Below, in pieces: positions 12,404 to 21,847 of a DNA stretch of 64,000 nt. The position numbers and the translations under genes were made by a program. The notes beneath the pieces were generated by a model. The model saw nothing but the letters and a program-made list of their open reading frames with translations. It was not told the DNA's origin and did not search any database. Location: contig CAWCKJ010000003.1 of NCBI GenBank assembly GCA_963796105.1, positions 576,001-640,000 on the forward strand. The letters run 5' to 3'. Position 1 is the first letter of the stretch. The number at the start of each line of letters is the position of its first letter. This DNA comes from a candidate division FCPU426 bacterium. GTDB taxonomy: Bacteria; Oederibacteriota; Muellerivitia; Muellerivitales; Muellerivitaceae.

Positions 12404-13090
12404 TCATTTCACATCCCGTAAAAACGGCTCAAAAACGTCCTTTTGCCCGGCGGCAATCTCAATAGCCTCTTTCCAGGCATACCGATAGGGGGAATCAAAC
12501 TCTTCCCCATCCGCGTTCTTCTGGCAATCCTGGCAGTATTGTTCCAAATGGTCCGCCAGGGTTTTCAGGCGCAAGCTCATTTTTTCGGCCAGCTTTTTTT
12601 TGAAATCGGCATCATCAAGCTCATCCATAACCATCAACAGGTGGGTAAGGCAGACATGGAAATGATCCAGGAAAGCCTTCCGCATTTCGGGTTCACCCAA
12701 GCCTTTTATCAAAATACTTATATAGTGCCCGCGGATTTGGAGCGCCTGGCGGCATCCGGGGCACATGTCATGTACCTCCCATTTTGGAAAGAGGTTATTA
12801 TGAGTCGCGTTCTTTTCCAGGAACGAAGCGGCAATTTGGGCCTGTTCCTTATACAGGATGGACAGCGCCAAAGTGTCGCGGAAACCGGCCAGGTGATGGG
12901 CATGGTACGGGCAATAACCCCGGGACGACCTCAAATCGACCCTGGCCCCAGGCCCATTGACGTTTTCATAAAGGAAAGCGTCGAAATAGGAGTGAACCGC
13001 TTCCTTTTCCAGAACGCAAAGGCCGCAATTTTTGGACTTTTGGAATGTCTCCAAAACCTTGAAATATGGCGTATGTTTTTCCACGGTCAA
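12404..13090 (-). CDS. DUF6062-like Cys/His-rich protein
   Basis: CGLC...LYENVN...GYCPYH and CPGC...CLTH (duplicated CxxC/CxxH). TTG start with AAGGAGG RBS overlaps the TPR gene stop. Confidence 0.7.
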   Translation of the reverse strand: MTVEKHTPYFKVLETFQKSKNCGLCVLEKEAVHSYFDAFLYENVNGPGARVDLRSSRGYCPYHAHHLAGFRDTLALSILYKEQAQIAASFLEKNATHNNLFPKWEVHDMCPGCRQALQIRGHYISILIKGLGEPEMRKAFLDHFHVCLTHLLMVMDELDDADFKKKLAEKMSLRLKTLADHLEQYCQDCQKNADGEEFDSPYRYAWKEAIEIAAGQKDVFEPFLRDVK

Positions 13091-13446
13091 TTCCCTCCTT
13101 TTGTTTTTTCTTGATACCATTGCTTGAAGGTTTTTTCCAAAAGCTTCAGTAATTCATGAACCGGAGTTTTTAATTTTTCAGTCTTTGGAACAGCTAATGC
13201 TAATTCCCTGGCTTCCTCCAAACGTCCTTGTTCATATAGGCAAACCGCCAATTCATATAGAAATAAAGGCTCATAAGGATTGAGGAAAATGGCGCGGCGG
13301 AACTGTCCTTCCGCCAGCTTAAAAGCTTTGTGCTGAAGGAAATAAATTCCCAGGTTTAATTGGCCATACCCTAGGTAGGGACTTGGCCTGAGGGCTTCTT
13401 CCCGCAGGGTTTCCCTGTCTTTTCTTTTTTGACCCTTACGCGGCAT
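13087..13446 (-). CDS. small tetratricopeptide-repeat protein
   Basis: LGIYF...AEGQFRRAIFLNP...LAVCLYEQGRLEEA TPR pattern. Confidence 0.8.
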   Translation of the reverse strand: MPRKGQKRKDRETLREEALRPSPYLGYGQLNLGIYFLQHKAFKLAEGQFRRAIFLNPYEPLFLYELAVCLYEQGRLEEARELALAVPKTEKLKTPVHELLKLLEKTFKQWYQEKTKGGN

Positions 13447-13528
13447 ATCAAAAAGCCTTTCCAGGTTCCCCCACGGCGTTGTAAAAAACTGAACTCAGGA
13501 TGGTAAACAGGGATGTTATTTCCCAGTT

Positions 13529-15244
13529 CTATTCAGTTTTAACAGACCACTCCAGCTTTCCAGCCTGTTCCAATGCCACTTGGAGATCTTCCCCTGAATC
13601 CTGTCGTCCTTCCATGAGTCCTTGGATGGTTTCCATCTCGTCCCTGACATGCCGCTGGAAATCTTTCGTCATGCTTTTGACGGTTTCCATCATGGCCTCA
13701 GTCCATTGAGTGCATAAGCGGTAAATGTGATTCTCCACCTGCCTGGGGATGGACTTGAGAAAATGCCGGTGGACCAGGGGCCGGAAAATCCACATGGGCA
13801 CCAGGAACCAGACGCCCTCAAAGGGGGTGTCAAACACATTTCCCAAGTGCATGGATAGCTTTTCGGGACGGGCCACCTCACCCCCAAAAACAGGACCCGC
13901 GTAATCGAAATGCAGCGCCTCCTTAACTTTGTCGGAAATTCGGTCTGCGAACGCCCTGGCCGCGCGGTTCACGGAAGCCTCGGCTTCGCGCACATGGATT
14001 TCCACGGCTGGGGCATATTCCCGGCCAAGCAGACCAAGTCTTTGAGTCAATCGCTGCTCCAGCCAGTTCTGATATTTTTCGGTTTCCTTGCCCAAGTGGC
14101 TTCTCCAACCCCGTATATCCATTTCCAATTCCGATTGCAGATCAAGCGCTAACCCATTCCTGTTTGGGAGAAGCCTTTCCTCAAGCGCCTGCCTGATCCG
14201 GTGGCTAGCGATGTCCTGTAGGTTATACAACTCATTATCCAGCGTGGCGATGTATTGCCATTCCCCTTTGATCAAACCGGACAGTTCCTCACGCGCCTTT
14301 TGACCCGCCTGAGCCGCCTTTAGGGCTAATTCCAGGTATCCTCGGCAGGACTTTAATAGGGCCTGGAGTTTAAAACGGAGAATTTTTTCCGATTCGAGGG
14401 AAGAATGGGACACCAAATGGTCCAAGAGAAAACGGCGCAAGGATTCCAGGGCCTCCTCGTATCCAGGTCTTGTGGAAACTGGCATGACCGTAATCCCATG
14501 GTTAAGGCGGTTTTTCAGTTGGAACCGGACATATCCAAGGATGGATTCCATTTGTTCCTTAGAGACAAGGTCGGCTTTGGTCACTAGAAGAATCGTCTTG
14601 GGGGTGCTCTCCTCCAACTGTTGTATCAAGGATAGGTCATCTTCCGACAACGGGTGGTCCGAGGATACCGCCACCAGCGCCACACCCACTTTTGGAATCC
14701 AGTCCATTGTGGCGGCCGTGTTATGGGCATGGAGGCTTCCGATGCCCGGCGAGTCCACCCAACGCACGCCCTCCCAGGACCCAATCCCCTCCAATTCGAC
14801 GTCCACGCGGGAAACTTCTTTTCGGTTCTCAGGATTTTCCCTTTCAGTGGCGTAACACGCGATGAGATTTGGGGCAATATTTTCATTGTGTCCATCCAGG
14901 TAATGGACGGTCATTTGGTCGGAAACCCCTGACATTACGCGGGTGACGACCGCCGTGGCGGGCAAAACATCCGTGGGAAGGATGTTCCTCCTCAATAGGG
15001 CGTTTAAGAGAGAGCTTTTCCCGGCCTTGAACCTTCCTAAAAGCACGATGTCCAGGGAATCGGATTCCTGGGAAAACTCCGAAAGTTTTTGAAGTGGGGC
15101 TAACAAAGCCGGGATTTTAAATCGGCGGCTGGCAGAACCGATGAACGACAGGACTTCCGTTGCCCGAAGGTGGTAGCGTTTGAAAGCTTTCTGGACGCCA
15201 GTATTAGGTTCTGGTTGTTCTTGGAAAACCGGATTCATGGCCAC
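13529..15244 (-). CDS. bacterial dynamin-like GTPase
   Basis: G1 GRFKAGKS, G2 LPAT, G3 DSPG, G4 TKAD; helical stalk and hydrophobic paddle WFLVPMWIF. Confidence 0.88.
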   Translation of the reverse strand: MAMNPVFQEQPEPNTGVQKAFKRYHLRATEVLSFIGSASRRFKIPALLAPLQKLSEFSQESDSLDIVLLGRFKAGKSSLLNALLRRNILPTDVLPATAVVTRVMSGVSDQMTVHYLDGHNENIAPNLIACYATERENPENRKEVSRVDVELEGIGSWEGVRWVDSPGIGSLHAHNTAATMDWIPKVGVALVAVSSDHPLSEDDLSLIQQLEESTPKTILLVTKADLVSKEQMESILGYVRFQLKNRLNHGITVMPVSTRPGYEEALESLRRFLLDHLVSHSSLESEKILRFKLQALLKSCRGYLELALKAAQAGQKAREELSGLIKGEWQYIATLDNELYNLQDIASHRIRQALEERLLPNRNGLALDLQSELEMDIRGWRSHLGKETEKYQNWLEQRLTQRLGLLGREYAPAVEIHVREAEASVNRAARAFADRISDKVKEALHFDYAGPVFGGEVARPEKLSMHLGNVFDTPFEGVWFLVPMWIFRPLVHRHFLKSIPRQVENHIYRLCTQWTEAMMETVKSMTKDFQRHVRDEMETIQGLMEGRQDSGEDLQVALEQAGKLEWSVKTE

Positions 15245-15338
15245 GCCCCAGTTCTAAAATAGGAAGTTTCAGCCTTGAGCGGAGTCACGTGGAAGGTTTT
15301 GGAAGGAAGGCTCCGGCGCCAACCACGGTACTGCCGTG

Positions 15339-15385
15339 GTAGGAGTCATCAGCCTTGAGGGCGGTTTAAGGGGAACTCCATCCCC
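15339..15385 (-). promoter_or_regulatory. fluoride (crcB) riboswitch upstream of the dynamin operon
   Basis: Minus strand GGGGATGGAGTTCCCCTTAAACCGCCCTCAAGGCTGATGACTCCTAC matches the crcB consensus (GAUGG-GUUC, AAACCGC, GCUGAUGAC-CCUAC). Extended -10-like TGCTATAAAAT lies just upstream. Confidence 0.88.
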
Positions 15386-15479
15386 AATAGGTATTATTTT
15401 ATAGCATGAGGGGCCGCTTGAGGCTGTTTTGTTTGGGGATTTCCAATGCCGGAAGCATAAAAAGCGAGTCTGAATGCCA

Positions 15480-16676
15480 TTAACCCTCTTCATCCAGCAA
15501 ATCTTCATCGGACCTTTTTCCCGGTTTTGGAAGAAGATGGCCAGGATGGAAAAATTTTCCGGCGATGAGAGTCGGCACGACCGCGCTCGTGATAACCACA
15601 GCCACCAAAAAGGAATATTGGTTCTGCGTCACGATATTATGTGAGAAACCGTATAAAGCCGAGATGGTCCCAAAGGTAAGCCCGGTGGACATCATCAAGG
15701 TGTAATACCAGCGCTCATCGTGTTTTTTCCTGAATTTCCCGACCACGGGGTATAAACCAAATATCTTGGACCCGACTTTTCCAATTAAAAGGGCGATGAA
15801 AACAATGGGCGCGGATATCAGGGCCGGCAGGGAAACAAGCGTTCCTGCCCGGAGAAAATAAAAAGGTGTAAGAAACCCGACAGTCAGGGTCCTCATACGG
15901 TGAATCCAATGGACATCGTTGGTCGAGAACTCGGCCAGGACCATGCCGATCAGATACGCCGGAAGAACCGCCTCACTGCCGGACCAAAGAGCTAAAGAAC
16001 CCAGCCCGAAGAGTACAAGTATGACCCATTTCGTCTTGACCGCGTTGGTGTGGCTCGAATAGGTTTTGGATAACCAACGGCTGACGAGCGGCAGAATCAA
16101 TAGCACGAAAACGGTCACCAGGACAAATATGACCGTTTTGTAAGTGAATGGGGCGAAGAGCAATCCGAGGGCAATGACCGTGCCGAGATCGTTGATGAAA
16201 CAAGCCCCGAGTATTCCCTTTCCGAAATCGGTCTTATTGAAGCCGGTTTCCAGCATCACGGCATAGACGACCGCCATGGAGGTGGTTGATAAGGACACTC
16301 CACAAAGCAGGCTGGCTTGGGGGTCCCATCCCAGGAAATAGCGGGCGATGGCAGCGCACCCGAGAAACGGGGCGAAGAAGCCGAAGAGGCCGATAATAGA
16401 GACTTCCTTGAACTTCCTTTTCATCACATCCGGCTCAAGCTCCGCTCCGGCCAGGAAAGTAAGAAGCACGGCCCCGGCGGAGGCTAAAAAACGCAGCCAC
16501 TCCAGGTTGGAACCGAGTATTGATGCCGCGTCGCCGTACAACGAAGCTAACGCCGCGACAGCCACACCCACGCAGATCTCAATCAGGGCGATGGAAACCT
16601 TAAGGTGGTAGGCTATGACGGCGGAAATGATGGACAACCCAAGCCAGATTGCTGCGATGGTGTAAATTTGCTGCAT
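15480..16676 (-). CDS. cation:proton antiporter (CPA2 / Na_H_Exchanger family)
   Basis: About 12 TM segments; LTFLAGAE, STTSMAVV, FINDLG and MSTGLTFG motifs. Confidence 0.88.
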   Translation of the reverse strand: MQQIYTIAAIWLGLSIISAVIAYHLKVSIALIEICVGVAVAALASLYGDAASILGSNLEWLRFLASAGAVLLTFLAGAELEPDVMKRKFKEVSIIGLFGFFAPFLGCAAIARYFLGWDPQASLLCGVSLSTTSMAVVYAVMLETGFNKTDFGKGILGACFINDLGTVIALGLLFAPFTYKTVIFVLVTVFVLLILPLVSRWLSKTYSSHTNAVKTKWVILVLFGLGSLALWSGSEAVLPAYLIGMVLAEFSTNDVHWIHRMRTLTVGFLTPFYFLRAGTLVSLPALISAPIVFIALLIGKVGSKIFGLYPVVGKFRKKHDERWYYTLMMSTGLTFGTISALYGFSHNIVTQNQYSFLVAVVITSAVVPTLIAGKFFHPGHLLPKPGKRSDEDLLDEEG

Positions 16677-16719: not shown

Positions 16720-16753
16720 GGCATAAAAAAACCCGCTTGGCGGCGGGTTCTTT
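16720..16753 (-). terminator. intrinsic terminator in the antiporter leader (likely riboswitch expression platform)
   Basis: Minus strand AACCCGCcgccaaGCGGGTTTTTTT between the aptamer and the start codon. Confidence 0.75.
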
Positions 16754-16793
16754 ACAAGTTGATGAAAGACTCCACCGCCGTAATCACTGAGCA

Positions 16794-16840
16794 GTAGGAG
16801 TCATTAGCCCCGGAGGGCGGTTAAAGGGAACTCCATCCCA
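16794..16840 (-). promoter_or_regulatory. fluoride (crcB) riboswitch upstream of the antiporter
   Basis: Minus strand TGGGATGGAGTTCCCTTTAACCGCCCTCCGGGGCTAATGACTCCTAC matches the crcB consensus. Confidence 0.9.
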
Positions 16841-17027
16841 TAAAAGTTAATGGCGATACATTACTACAGCATGGAAAATAAAAACAATACTTTTACAATT
16901 CTTTTTCGAGATTTGTTACGAAATTTTTCCCAGCGGTTTTACAAACAATCAGCCAAATTGATCGCGCAAAGGCGCTCAACCCATACCTTTTGCGCTTCGG
17001 CGTCAATATTTTTTTTCGTAAGTTTCA

Positions 17028-17471
17028 TTACCAGACATTTTTATAAACAGGATTTCCCAGGGCATCCTTGTGGGTGCAATCTATTAAAACAGTTCCTGTC
17101 GTTGAATCATAGAGCCAATGGGCCGTGTCCTTTAGTTTTGTGGCATCTATTTTCCCAGTCGAGTCCAAAAAGGGATAAGTTTCCACTTGGTTCGAGGGCG
17201 GATGACCGTATTTTTCCAAGTGCAGGATGGGTATTTCTTTCAAATACTTCGGGACCAAATCCCTCAAATCCTGCGGCCAAACCCCATGACTATCGCCAAA
17301 GTAAACACTCGCCGCCGACTTAAGTGACCCTAAACTCCCTTTGGCGGAGCCTTCCCTGCTCTTCTCCATCATTTGAAGAAACCGGGAGGTTGTGACGCTC
17401 GTAAAATAAACTACTACGGTCAAGACCAGAAGGCTTGCCCAAACAACCCTGAAATTCGTTTTAGAGTCCAA
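17028..17471 (-). CDS. pilin/pseudopilin (GspG)-like protein with one N-terminal TM segment
   Basis: TM followed by KSREGSAKGSLGSLKSAASVYFGD..G.WP..L..LVPKYL; no clear GFxxxE prepilin site. Confidence 0.55.
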   Translation of the reverse strand: MDSKTNFRVVWASLLVLTVVVYFTSVTTSRFLQMMEKSREGSAKGSLGSLKSAASVYFGDSHGVWPQDLRDLVPKYLKEIPILHLEKYGHPPSNQVETYPFLDSTGKIDATKLKDTAHWLYDSTTGTVLIDCTHKDALGNPVYKNVW

Positions 17472-17534: not shown

Positions 17535-17945
17535 TTAAGTATTTCTGTTCCGATAATAATCCATAAAAACGGAGGGTGAAACTATTTTCACTTGATGATA
17601 ACTCGAAGGAAAATGCTTAAGATTGCCGGTCACGAGCATCCCCGCTTTTCCCGCCACAGCTACTTCCAAAAAAGCATCGTCCCGAGGGTCCGATAGACGC
17701 CGGGCCAATGGTTTGGAAGCCACGACATCGCCTTTGATTTTCATTTGCTCTAAAAGAGCCTCCGTTTCCTCTTTACGAAATGGAAATTTCGGCCGGCTCA
17801 AAACCTCGGAATATTCCGAGAAAATGCGGGCATCAAAACATAACGAAAGGGCTCCCGATGAGATTAACCGTACGATTTCGCCAGGCGGGCCATACGGGGA
17901 TAAAAGACCCGAAACCAAGACATTTGTATCGATGACAACCTTCAC
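17535..17945 (-). CDS. PIN-domain (VapC-like) toxin
   Basis: VVIDTNVLVS, EYSEVL, DPRDDAFLE and LVTGNLKHF motifs. Confidence 0.9.
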   Translation of the reverse strand: MKVVIDTNVLVSGLLSPYGPPGEIVRLISSGALSLCFDARIFSEYSEVLSRPKFPFRKEETEALLEQMKIKGDVVASKPLARRLSDPRDDAFLEVAVAGKAGMLVTGNLKHFPSSYHQVKIVSPSVFMDYYRNRNT

Positions 17946-18229
17946 CTTTGGCGTTCTTTCCGAACGGCTTCGATTTCATCGTTAATTTCCTTCAAGGACA
18001 TTTTAGAAGTGCCCTTGGCCACGGACCGGCTTTGCATTCTTTCCACCGCGATCATGGCCCTGACCTGGCGAAGGGCGGCCAGGGAATCCTCCATATCGTC
18101 TTCAGTAACAGCTGAAACAAGGGCAATCGGCTTTCCATTGGACGTTAATAGAAAGTCTTTCTCCTTGGCTAAGTCGCTCCAAACCTTACCGGACTTAGAG
18201 CGGAAATCACGGACTGACACGAACTTCAT
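17942..18229 (-). CDS. Phd/YefM-like antitoxin
   Basis: MKFVSVRDFRS...LLTSNGKPIAL; AGGAGG RBS; GTGA overlap with the toxin start. Confidence 0.85.
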   Translation of the reverse strand: MKFVSVRDFRSKSGKVWSDLAKEKDFLLTSNGKPIALVSAVTEDDMEDSLAALRQVRAMIAVERMQSRSVAKGTSKMSLKEINDEIEAVRKERQR

Positions 18230-18290
18230 AAAAGCCTCCTTCGATTGGATACCATTAGTGTACACATTTGGTACACAATCGGCAATGATT

Positions 18291-18534: not shown

Positions 18535-18862
18535 AACTGGGTTATCGGTTTTCCGAATACTGGGTTGAGCCCCCCATACTGGTTTGTACTGGGTTGGGGC
18601 TTCCAATACTGGGTTGCGGGTTTCCCGAATACTGGGTTGTACTGGGTTGGGGCCTCCAATACTGGGTTGAGGGTTTCCCGAATACTGGGTTGTACTGGGT
18701 TGGGGCCTCCAATACTGGGTTGAGGGTTTTCCAACTACTGGGTTGTACTGGGTTGAGCCCTCCAATACTGGGTTGAGGGTTTTCCAAATACTGGGTTGTA
18801 CTGGGTTGGGGCCTCCAATACTGGGTTGAGGGTTTTCCAAATACTGATATGTACTGGGTTGG
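18535..18862. repeat. 53-bp tandem array of TACTGGGTTG decamers, left part
   Basis: Unit AATACTGGGTTG-TACTGGGTTG-GGGCCTCC-AATACTGGGTTG-AGGGTTTYCCR starting at about 18575, 18628, 18681, 18734, 18787 and 18840. Confidence 0.95.
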
Positions 18863-19120
18863 TGTCACTGGCCAGCCACTTTAACCCCCCTGGCCGCCTA
18901 CTTTGCCCCCCCTCTTTTGGGCACTTCGAGGGGTGCCTGTTTCGGGGACTTCGACCCCTGCCTTGCGGGGCCTCTTTTTTAGATTAATTTAGACCCATCA
19001 AACTCCTTTCACAAGATGCGTTTTGCTTCCCCAACATTGGATGATACGAAGTCCCGCGCAAATCCCGTAACCAATAGGCGCAAGATTGCACGAATAAGAC
19101 AGCATCGAACGATGGGTTTC

Positions 19121-19900
19121 TCATAGTTTTGCCTCTTTTTCCCTGCTGTGTTCTTTTTTCATTTCTTCGCGCATGGAACGGGTCCGAAAGGAAGGGCCCT
19201 GAATGACGACGGCAGTGGCATGGTGGACCAGGCGGTCCATGGCAGCCGAGGCTAGGAGGGCGTCGCCGAAAAGCTCCGGCCACTCCCGCAGACTGCGGTT
19301 GGTGGTAAAAATCAAGGAGCCCTTTTCATAACGCTCACAGATGATGTCGTAAAAATCCTCGGCGACCTTGGTGTCGAAGGGCTTGAGACCCCAGTCGTCC
19401 AGGATCAAGAGGTCGGGTTTCAGGAAGGATGCGAATCGGTTTTCCCAGGTACCGTCCCCGCGCGAGGCCGCTAATCGTTGGGCCGCATGCGAGGTCTTGA
19501 TAAAGAGTACCTCATAACCCTTGCGGCAGACTTCATGGGCCAAAGCGCAGGCCAAATGGGTTTTGCCCACACCTGAGGGACCGATGAAAAATAGGTTCTC
19601 TTTTCGCTCCACGAAAGAACAAGTACCCAAATCCAGGATTTGTTGCCGGTTGATGGCCGGGTTGAAGGCGAAATCGAACCCCGTTAGAGTCATATGGGTT
19701 GAGAAGCCCGCCTTTTTCAGCCTTCTTTGGAGTTGGCCCACTTGGCGGCGCTCCAGCTCATCCAACAGCAACTGGCCCAGGAAATCCATATAACCGATCT
19801 GGGATTCAATGGCCTGCTGGTTTCGGATTTCCAGCGTCTCCAACATACCTGCGAGTTTTAACCTTCTCAGGTGCGGCTCCAACTGATGTTTATTTTCCAT
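19121..19900 (-). CDS. istB: IS21 helper AAA+ ATPase
   Basis: GPSGVGKTHLA, LLILDDWG and DRLVHH motifs; ATG 19900 with GAGGAGG RBS. Confidence 0.96.
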   Translation of the reverse strand: MENKHQLEPHLRRLKLAGMLETLEIRNQQAIESQIGYMDFLGQLLLDELERRQVGQLQRRLKKAGFSTHMTLTGFDFAFNPAINRQQILDLGTCSFVERKENLFFIGPSGVGKTHLACALAHEVCRKGYEVLFIKTSHAAQRLAASRGDGTWENRFASFLKPDLLILDDWGLKPFDTKVAEDFYDIICERYEKGSLIFTTNRSLREWPELFGDALLASAAMDRLVHHATAVVIQGPSFRTRSMREEMKKEHSREKEAKL

Positions 19901-19913
19901 ATATGCTTCCTCC

Positions 19914-21470
19914 TCAATTTTTATCCAGAGCCAAGGCACGGAGGAAATCCTCCGCGGGCCGGGCGAAATCGAAAGACGACTGGGGTTTGAGTGAAGGATC
20001 CGACGGCGGGTCCAACGGGTTTTGATCGAGGTTCTTTTGAAGGATGTTTTTGATGGATTGGTACGTGTAGTTTCCGAAATGGAGGGCCCTTAGACAGGCT
20101 GCCTCCAGACGGGAAGGCAGGTACTTTTCCCTCAAGCGCAGAATGCCCTGGGCTTTGCGCAGATGGTCCAGGGGGTGGGAGTGTTCCAGCAGGAGTTGGA
20201 TTAATTGATGGGTATTAGGTCCAATGGCCTGGGCCTGTTTGAGGCACCATTGTGGGGTTCGTTCCAAGAAGACCGCTTTTTCAGGGGGATAGTGGCCCGG
20301 GTTGGTGCGCCAGGTTCCCTTGCGTGTGGCCTTGGCGTGGGAAGCCACGCATTCGTGTTTGAGAAATATATCAACGGTGGTGTCGGTTAATTGGGCCAGT
20401 AGTTTTTGGCCCCGAAGACGGTAGGGAGCCGAGTAATAGGAACCTTCCACGACTACGTGGCAATCGGGGTGCAGAGTGGCTTCTTTGAAGAAAGTTGGAT
20501 GGTAAGCCGCGGTAGGCAGGGGCAAAAGGGCCTTCTGTTCCACGCTCTGGAAGACGGCCAAGGGTTGAAGCCGGGTGGTGCCATGATCCCGTAAACCTGC
20601 CTTGTTCATCACCCAATCGCGGAGTTGATGGTTGGCATCGGTGCGGCCCTGGAAGGAACGACCCTTGAAGAAGGAATTACGGACATAGGGCACGCCGCGT
20701 TCAACTTTACCCTTGTGGCGTGGAGTGGCGACGCGGCAAGGGGAGATGATGAAGCCGTAATGGTTGGCGCATTCCACGTAGGTACGGTTGGCCAAGGGAT
20801 CATAGAGGGCCGCCTTGACGATGGCGCTTTTCAGGTTATCGATTACGATTTTTTTAGGGACTGAATTGAAGAACTCGAAAGCCCGGCGGTGGCAGGCGAT
20901 CCAGGTTCTCACGTCCTGTGCGAATACAATCTCGGCGTACATATGCCGGGAATGGGAAAGGGTCATCACGAAAACCCAGGCCTTGGCTTGCTTGCCACGC
21001 GTCTCGTCCCACAAGCGGCCCAAAAGCCCGAAATCCACTTGGGCCTCCTCGCCGGGCGCAACCTCCAGCCTCACGTAGGCGGGTTTCTCATTGCGAAAAG
21101 GCTCCGTATACCTCTTCAGGGTCGAGTAACTCCCCTTCCACCCGTGCCGCTCTTGAAGCATCTCCTGGATGCGAATCAAGGTGAAATCTTCCTTCAACCA
21201 TTCTTGGATGATTCCCTTGAGGGCCTCCAAGGCATGAGCGGGAACGGGCGTGGATTTTTCGCCGTCTTCCCAAGCCTTCGCCAAATCCTTTTCCAGGGGA
21301 AGTTCCCCTTGGAGAAAGCCATGTTCTTTCGCCCAACGCACGTATTGCTTGACCGTGTGCTTATTGCATCCCAGGGCCCGGGCAGTGGGTTTGAACCCGC
21401 CCAAGGCCTGGTAAGTCCTCAAAATCTCACGAATAGTCGCCATGTCGCTCTGCCTCCCTTGTCGGGTCAT
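19914..21470 (-). CDS. istA: IS21 DDE transposase
   Basis: PGEEAQVDFG, IVIDNLKS and KGKVERGV motifs. Confidence 0.96.
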   Translation of the reverse strand: MTRQGRQSDMATIREILRTYQALGGFKPTARALGCNKHTVKQYVRWAKEHGFLQGELPLEKDLAKAWEDGEKSTPVPAHALEALKGIIQEWLKEDFTLIRIQEMLQERHGWKGSYSTLKRYTEPFRNEKPAYVRLEVAPGEEAQVDFGLLGRLWDETRGKQAKAWVFVMTLSHSRHMYAEIVFAQDVRTWIACHRRAFEFFNSVPKKIVIDNLKSAIVKAALYDPLANRTYVECANHYGFIISPCRVATPRHKGKVERGVPYVRNSFFKGRSFQGRTDANHQLRDWVMNKAGLRDHGTTRLQPLAVFQSVEQKALLPLPTAAYHPTFFKEATLHPDCHVVVEGSYYSAPYRLRGQKLLAQLTDTTVDIFLKHECVASHAKATRKGTWRTNPGHYPPEKAVFLERTPQWCLKQAQAIGPNTHQLIQLLLEHSHPLDHLRKAQGILRLREKYLPSRLEAACLRALHFGNYTYQSIKNILQKNLDQNPLDPPSDPSLKPQSSFDFARPAEDFLRALALDKN

Positions 21471-21633
21471 GCCGTTCTCCTCACATGAAGTGAAAAAAGA
21501 AAGGAATGACGGTTAGAGAGGCCCTTGGCAAGGGGGTCAAAGTCGGTGGCCAGACAGGGGGTCAAAGTGACTGGCCAGAGGTGGGGTCAAAGTGCTTGGC
21601 CAGCTAGGGGGTTAAAGCTCGCGGCCAATGACA

Positions 21634-21814
21634 GTTGGGGCTTCCAATACTGGGTTGAGGGTTTTCCAAATACTGGGTTGTACTGGGTTGAGGCTTCCAA
21701 TACTGGGTTGCGGGTTTTCCAAATACTGGGTTGTACTGGGTTGGGCCTCCAATACTGGGTTGAGGGTTTTCCAAATACTAGGTTGTACTGGGTTGGGCCT
21801 CCAATACTGGGTTG
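21634..21814. repeat. 53-bp TACTGGGTTG array, right part
   Basis: Continues in register after the IS target duplication; about three further units. Confidence 0.95.
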
Positions 21815-21847
21815 TGGAATCCTGAAACCTTGGAACTGGCTTGGAAC

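Follow-up and report, generated by a model that had tools for sequence, protein, structure and literature searches.

Why should a fluoride riboswitch stand in front of a gene for a bacterial dynamin, a kind of protein for which, to our knowledge, no trigger is known in most cases? The question is raised by a locus on the minus strand of a 64,000-nucleotide stretch (hereafter the window) of contig CAWCKJ010000003.1 from a candidate division FCPU426 bacterium, where an earlier note had placed a crcB-type aptamer, the second of the locus, about 95 nt upstream of a dynamin-family GTPase. The aptamer is indeed there: the Rfam fluoride model (RF01734, cmscan), run on the minus strand, matches positions 15333-15394 with 61.8 bits (gathering score 34, E 9.8e-15), is covered in full (model positions 1-64) and has its core at 15339-15385, as had been claimed. 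From the 3′ end of this core it is 95 nt to the GTG at 15244 (an ATG alternative is at 15238) that starts a gene (13529-15244) for a bacterial dynamin-like GTPase of 569-571 amino acids, whose Dynamin_N domain (PF00350) is matched at E 2.6e-19 and 70 bits against a cut-off of 27. The dynamin gene is very probably under fluoride control. Granted such control, we lean slightly, by analogy with studied dynamins, towards a role in protecting the membrane, and a fluoride-induced, membrane-protecting dynamin is overall the best reading of the locus, one to which we would give an even chance.

The genes of the locus follow each other in the order aptamer, CPA2-type antiporter, aptamer, dynamin-like GTPase, TPR protein and DUF6062 protein, and a second complete cassette of identical order is found on contig C5 of the same genome (the source genome, 4.98 Mb). 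RF01734 aptamers number four in that whole genome, two per cassette. Since the remaining two head the C5 cassette, all four riboswitches serve antiporter/dynamin cassettes and, the C5 cassette being complete while the two dynamins are 75% identical, both aptamers have been retained in both diverged copies. The C5 paralogue of the dynamin-heading aptamer scores 57.2 bits, and the first aptamer of the window, which heads the antiporter (16788-16849), scores 46.7 bits over its full length. The 398-amino-acid antiporter (15480-16676) is recognised as a CPA2-type cation:proton antiporter by PF00999 (E 3e-28), with TIGR00932 (E 4e-26) staying under its cut-off. No match to Fluc/CrcB was obtained in the source genome, which is 96.8% complete; its single CLC (L219, C12:11822-15847) has no aptamer nearby and carries the motifs GHGVP and GREGP, which look to be of the chloride type and not of CLC-F. 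Given four aptamers and yet no Fluc match in this genome, the CPA2 antiporter could possibly be a fluoride exporter. Most aptamer-bearing relatives, unlike the source genome, place Fluc behind the aptamer: 23 relatives have an aptamer and, of 19 aptamer loci examined, four have a dynamin behind the aptamer and the majority of the rest Fluc.

Is this wiring a peculiarity of one genome? The link between aptamer and dynamin is conserved much more than chance would explain. With 58 aligned dynamins as query, two sets of loci were collected, the best 80 of at least 595 from genomes and the best 80 of at least 592 from metagenomes, and all were searched with a covariance model (R1) at a 30-bit cut; an aptamer was called direct when no more than 520 nt before the P-loop codon, and operon-head when heading a co-oriented upstream run. 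Among these 160 loci, 65 have a direct aptamer, 54 an operon-head one and 4 an aptamer elsewhere, with 20 loci too short to judge and 6 without the anchor motif (a partial 26.8-bit match in L030 was left out of the locus counts). Grouped at 70% identity, the loci form 62 groups, of which 29 are direct, 14 operon-head, 1 elsewhere, 7 without aptamer, 7 short and 4 without anchor. Aptamers are also far denser in the homologue loci (207 in 1.81 Mb) than in the source genome (4 in its 4.98 Mb). A similar picture comes from 80 Acidobacteriota genomes drawn evenly, with the seed excluded, where 11 of the 13 genomes with a strong dynamin match (E <= 1e-50) have a same-strand Rfam aptamer within 5 kb upstream, as against none of six distant dynamin matches. 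Seen from the side of the riboswitch, 11 of 22 aptamer-bearing genomes of this sample have the dynamin group downstream (11 of 21 minus the unpublished G088, which counts in the aptamer-bearing denominator only); 55 candidates per genome were scored in this RNA search, which may miss variants. Homologous operons thus generally keep the aptamer, in line with what the earlier note had expected if the association is real.

By the labels of the submitters, the aptamer-linked dynamins belong to 11 phyla. Their spread, though not any claim of transfer, was judged on a FastTree tree in which long branches are flagged; the context labels of L011, L018, L030, L105, L121, L122 and L147 were set by hand (those numbered above L085 lie outside the tree), and no hand-set label enters the locus counts. 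Such spread bears on the idea that the dynamin is a mere passenger of fluoride islands, without useful regulation. IS21 elements near the cassette in the source genome and in a relative of the same genus (G001), together with the patchy distribution, would suit it, but a dynamin with its own direct aptamer in 65 loci, with varied platforms and gene orders over deep branches, would hardly be expected from hitch-hiking, and we consider this idea very improbable. In G001 the orthologue of the C5 dynamin is interrupted by such an element only a few codons after its start (L220:7505-10014), parting the dynamin gene from the riboswitch leader and the antiporter, so it is by this insertion that the G001 dynamin lacks its leader.

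The G001 gene is the exception in a wider count, which also bears on a proposal of the earlier note, namely that the dynamin is a spare copy compensating for a housekeeping GTPase poisoned by fluoride. Among 60 relatives and the source genome there are seven full Dynamin_N domains, six of them downstream of an Rfam aptamer (of these six, two duplicate surveyed loci and two others are near twins). Metal fluorides inhibit GTPases, and enolase, found in 38 of the 160 loci, offers a precedent for such compensation according to parts of PMC11139923 and PMC5533749. However, the only two full Dynamin_N domains of the source genome are both inside cassettes, which leaves it without an unlinked one, and five of the 60 relatives have a full domain, four of these aptamer-linked. 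With nearly all full domains linked to aptamers, a constitutive dynamin for which the gene could stand in is lacking; nor is the GTPase EngA, Era or EngB, the models of which all stay far under their cut-offs. The spare-copy proposal is therefore disfavoured and has, in our view, little probability.

Control by the aptamer would be expected to show in the leader. Across 54 aptamers, 92.5% of the cells in P1, P3 and the pseudoknot are paired, with 61 two-sided changes, and the pairing score exceeds that of each of the 500 shuffles and of every slid control; the stems are those of the Rfam consensus, and the pseudoknot is the one known for the class. The extended -10-like element reported earlier (TG-C-TATAAA / TAAAAT, 15396-15406) is present ahead of the second aptamer, and its TAAAAT is retained in the C5 copy. 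A strict sigma-70 scan made no call on it, and a TAnnnT hexamer precedes the aptamer by 5-22 nt in 53 of 64 homologous leaders versus 12 of 192 control windows. Since the terminator scan called none between the antiporter gene and the second aptamer, read-through may supplement this internal promoter. Downstream, a competing hairpin that includes P3 and the pseudoknot strand is predicted at 15307-15356 and appears in both copies, by minimum-energy folding and by alignment of the window and C5 leaders, and another, also predicted in both, spans the ribosome-binding region and the dynamin start (15236-15289). A translational relay in the leader of the window, with the freed strand grabbing the anti-ribosome-binding strand, was not reproduced by folding. 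The same leader contains, at 15260-15282, a degenerate repeat of the 3′ half of the aptamer, which is absent from the C5 copy.

The leaders of relatives are more explicit. Taking the 65 direct loci together with the two copies of the source genome, 16 of 67 direct leaders have a terminator-like platform, in which a hairpin takes in the 3′ end of the aptamer and is followed by a U-run, and in 17 of the 65 the CUCCU of the aptamer is placed to pair with the ribosome-binding site that serves an in-frame ATG. With either design the predicted control is ON, and from these leaders and from the known behaviour of the riboswitch class the same would apply to the window. The first riboswitch of the locus has, by ViennaRNA prediction, an expression platform at 16725-16802 made of a hairpin that invades the 3′ end of the aptamer and a second, U-tracted hairpin; on aptamer formation the unpaired probability of the 3′ arm and U-tract of the latter rises from 0.14 to 0.46 (0.16 to 0.47 on C5), and the strand freed by the aptamer is predicted in both copies to pair with the second hairpin and loosen it. 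Between the dynamin and TPR genes a further hairpin with a U-run, predicted in the window and not on C5, could lower read-through. Variant aptamers with an additional stem between P1 and P3 or altered core letters occur at L036:1963-2037, L058:5901-5968, L012:7797-7862 and L014:1306-1365.

What the dynamin does once made is less certain, and here its structure is the main guide. The GTPase motifs are intact (G1 GRFKAGKSS, the G2 threonine, G3 DSPG and G4 TKAD) and their columns are conserved over 58 sequences; the AlphaFold2 model (pLDDT 86) consists of a G-domain, a helical neck and a trunk, with a hydrophobic aromatic tip at about residues 465-485 that is conserved among homologues. Foldseek matches the model best to IniA (E 4e-20) and BDLP (9e-20), with the dynamin-like proteins (DLPs) of Campylobacter jejuni also among the top, and by sequence the nearest proteins of solved structure are Cj-DLP2/1, BDLP and IniA, the best match being to a C. 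jejuni DLP at E 9e-24 (PDB 5OWV/5OXF; PMC6104087). In the sections of that paper drawn on here, Cj-DLP2 and BDLP bind lipid at the position equivalent to the conserved trunk tip, and by analogy our dynamin probably binds membrane in the same way. The layout of G-domain, neck, trunk and tip is shared with Mycobacterium IniA, tied to drug tolerance in part of PMC6104087, and with Nostoc BDLP, although identity to them is 14-17% and TM-scores are 0.34-0.36 over the whole chain of what are hinged proteins. Neither IniA nor BDLP is reported under control of a fluoride aptamer, nor is a fluoride link described for the Cj-DLP pair, two DLP genes in one operon, an arrangement not seen in the source genome, where each cassette has a single DLP gene.

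The same protein could also be seen as part of a soluble NTPase machine which, together with a MutS-like ATPase, a small AAA ATPase, the TPR protein and DUF6062, would rescue complexes trapped by metal fluorides, membranes being secondary. Uncharacterised NTPases do recur in these islands (AAA-like in 43 and MutS-like in 10 of the 160 loci), and GDP-AlF4 binds the G-domains of DLPs, as given in part of PMC6104087. Yet the protein is folded like membrane remodellers, the hydrophobic tip is conserved and the partners differ between loci, and we take a soluble machine to be unlikely.

The remaining two genes were thought to complete a fixed module with the dynamin, an expectation that the homologues do not bear out. 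The TPR gene (13087-13446) encodes a small protein of 119 amino acids (PF13432, TPR_16, E 1.7e-8), a distinct family with the pattern RE-x-LRP-x-P-x-LGY ... FRRAIWLNPYEP, and the DUF6062 gene (12404-13084) one of 226 amino acids (PF19538, E 2.3e-11). Their junction is as tight as had been described, with the TPR stop TGA, two nucleotides, and the DUF6062 GTG at 13084, an AAGGAGG within the TPR tail and the spacing retained on C5, but the DUF6062 start is likely 13084 rather than 13120. In the 160 loci, the TPR gene is present in 12, DUF6062 in 18 and both together in 4 (among the 84 loci that span 12 kb or more, 8 and 8). TPR is the first gene behind the aptamer in L010, L022, L043, L097 and L109, L227 has an aptamer-headed DUF6062 without dynamin, and each of the two is also found behind an aptamer of its own or with no dynamin next to it. 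DUF6062 is nonetheless tied to dynamins by gene fusions, in L053, L058 and L161. The conserved unit is therefore aptamer plus dynamin, and the trio is one arrangement within a modular regulon.

DUF6062 has two CxxC and two CxxH sets; over 37 sequences C20, C23, C58, C108, C145 and H148 are invariant and H61 and C111 conserved in at least 90%, and these eight residues likely form two metal sites. Its structure model is all-helical (pLDDT 92). Foldseek returned no match at E <= 0.001 for this fold and another search a best Z of 5.3; an Atlas search gave DUF6062 clusters only, the automatic ABC-type names of which we do not trust. Co-folding of dynamin and DUF6062 scored 0.00, which, as a run without control pairs, weighs neither way. 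A third, distant DUF6062-like gene at C4:1008465-1009136 has no aptamer nearby.

The neighbours of the dynamin in the 160 loci describe the regulon further: DUF190 in 56, an antiporter in 50, the small AAA-like ATPase and enolase already mentioned, Fluc in 33, USP in 29, metallophosphoesterase in 25, a second dynamin paralogue in 25, MFS in 24, a helical protein of 148 amino acids in 24 and the MutS-like genes as pairs, with hydrogenlyase-like genes also recurring. Many of these are published fluoride regulon genes in the portions used of PMC11139923, PMC5533749 and PMC2864571. The second paralogue, of about 680 amino acids, is often transcribed away from or towards the first (e.g., L024:1903-3954 and L037:5567-7624) and in 14 of 24 cases comes with an aptamer of its own. 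Its N-terminal domain also exists unattached, as the 148-aa protein (24 loci, e.g., L050:6042-6470). That extra N-terminal domain recalls the assembly domain of Cj-DLP1, a likeness which does not imply homology. Other recurrent island genes, labelled weakly or not at all by Pfam, are a 245-aa AAA-like ATPase (L135:1661-2437), a 295/330-aa family (L083:3355-4242), a Cys-rich 193-aa protein (L055:570-1184) and a 159-aa protein (L165:7632-8102) that looks HAD-like.

With Fluc and DUF190 so often at its side, the induced dynamin could be imagined to dispose of fluoride or of the damage it does, by making vesicles or a compartment to remove F-, precipitated metal fluorides or proteins that have been poisoned, or by organising patches of Fluc or antiporter. 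Some DLPs, such as LeoA, are tied to vesiculation in passages of PMC6104087, and the want of a Fluc match and of an aptamer-linked CLC in the source genome would fit. On the other hand, the dynamin is often the sole gene behind the aptamer (L059, L064, L077, L114), and nothing points to cargo or to a part that would bind fluoride. Disposal of this kind is somewhat less unlikely than a soluble machine, but still improbable.

How does this compare with what has been described? Fluoride riboswitch regulons (RF01734), as far as covered by the parts consulted of PMC2864571, PMC11139923 and, for the FRM operon of E. cloacae, PMC5533749, share with our loci the aptamer, neighbours such as Fluc, Na+/H+ antiporter, enolase, USP, MutS-like and formate hydrogenlyase-like genes, and the aptamer-overlapping terminators also found in many homologues here. 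They differ in the output, which is here a dynamin-like GTPase with TPR and DUF6062 proteins in a genome without a Fluc match. The word ‘dynamin’ is absent from the main texts of PMC11139923 and PMC5533749 and from the portion examined of the supplementary material of PMC2864571. Literature searches gave, among the papers listed, none on a link between fluoride riboswitch (crcB) and dynamin, in keeping with the earlier note, which knew of no characterisation, though mention in early crcB-RNA gene tables is possible; a search on DUF6062 gave none either. The pairing of aptamer and dynamin is apparently a real, conserved and previously undescribed output of a known riboswitch class.

Two other members of the dynamin superfamily, DynA of Bacillus subtilis, which acts in membrane surveillance, and Eleos (LeoABC), differ from ours in gene context, and the DynA model scores 42 bits against a cut-off of 1600. 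An Eleos/LeoABC identity was rejected, as the LeoA/LeoBC profile matches span about 45-53 residues round the P-loop and no leoABC arrangement was seen. A further possibility is that fluoride is a proxy, the regulon answering acid or weak-acid stress and the dynamin giving general protection of the envelope or against phages. Uptake of HF (hydrogen fluoride) increases at low pH, according to part of PMC11139923, many carriers have titles with bog, fen or palsa, DynA restricts phage spread in what was drawn from PMC8844932, and PADLOC gives weak LeoA/LeoBC matches. Against this, the aptamer fits the canonical model in full, the PADLOC matches are those confined to brief stretches round the P-loop, and it is fluoride genes, not defence genes, that lie alongside, so that we hold a proxy role as little probable as the spare copy.

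Returning to the membrane-protecting dynamin, aptamer-dynamin wiring that occurs twice in one genome and at most homologous genes across many lineages suggests that these dynamins are likely a membrane-protecting part of the fluoride response. In such a response, rising cytoplasmic fluoride would switch the dynamin gene on through the aptamer. Fluoride, taken up as HF, acidifies the cytoplasm and reduces the proton-motive force. The antiporter would bring the pH back and Fluc, if encoded, would export F-, whilst the dynamin would bind, tether or reseal the inner membrane and so keep it sealed during fluoride stress. The TPR and DUF6062 proteins would be optional members of the regulon, likely adaptors.

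Several observations weigh against this reading. The 160 loci include kin, and R1 was built from 54 aptamers of these very loci, for which reason 20 loci were checked with Rfam alone; this found an aptamer in 14, as against 17 with R1. The aptamers of L014, L015 and L042 are under the Rfam gathering cut and reach 44-50 bits with R1. Eleven of the 160 loci have at least 3 kb of upstream sequence and no aptamer. In the dynamin leader of the window no U-tract follows the competing hairpin, and two-state equilibrium folding left access to the ribosome site unchanged between the modelled ON and OFF states (0.29/0.29 and 0.17/0.19), while the homologous Shine-Dalgarno-type leaders come largely from one Acidobacteriota clade. 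The DLPs of C. jejuni, in the part of PMC6104087 used, have to assemble into a two-protein tetramer for efficient lipid binding, and the source genome has neither the second-paralogue type nor a stand-alone N-domain partner.

A bolder version, which we put forward as possible but rather doubtful, places this widespread dynamin clade at the core of the fluoride response, as the effector in a machine that remodels membranes and would protect by a route other than export through Fluc or CLC-F. In the source genome, which shows no Fluc, riboswitch-controlled defence would then consist entirely of the antiporter-dynamin cassette. The machine would then consist of the dynamin with the second paralogue or the free N-domain, DUF6062 as metal-binding partner and the TPR protein as adaptor and, if this were true, antiporter or dynamin would be a candidate third route of fluoride resistance.

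The surroundings of the cassette in the window may be noted. Directly upstream is a PIN_3 / Phd-YefM toxin-antitoxin pair (17535-18265, minus strand), and at 17028-17471 on the same strand a 147-aa open reading frame with an N-terminal hydrophobic stretch is without match in Pfam and NCBIfam; it looks pilin- or GspG-like. Further on (18550-21815), an element (19121-21470) of about 2.77 kb, which from its istA/istB-like open reading frames we take to be of the IS21 family, is set within an array of repeats of about 50 nt, and near-identical copies of it exist elsewhere on contig C3 and on C11.

In conclusion, fluoride control of a dynamin would add a membrane-remodelling arm to the fluoride response and provide a first functional context for DUF6062 and the small TPR family. 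As fluoride toxicity limits the engineering of organofluorine degradation, according to part of PMC11139923, such an arm would be relevant there too. A defined small-ion inducer would, in addition, make the cellular role of a bacterial dynamin directly testable.

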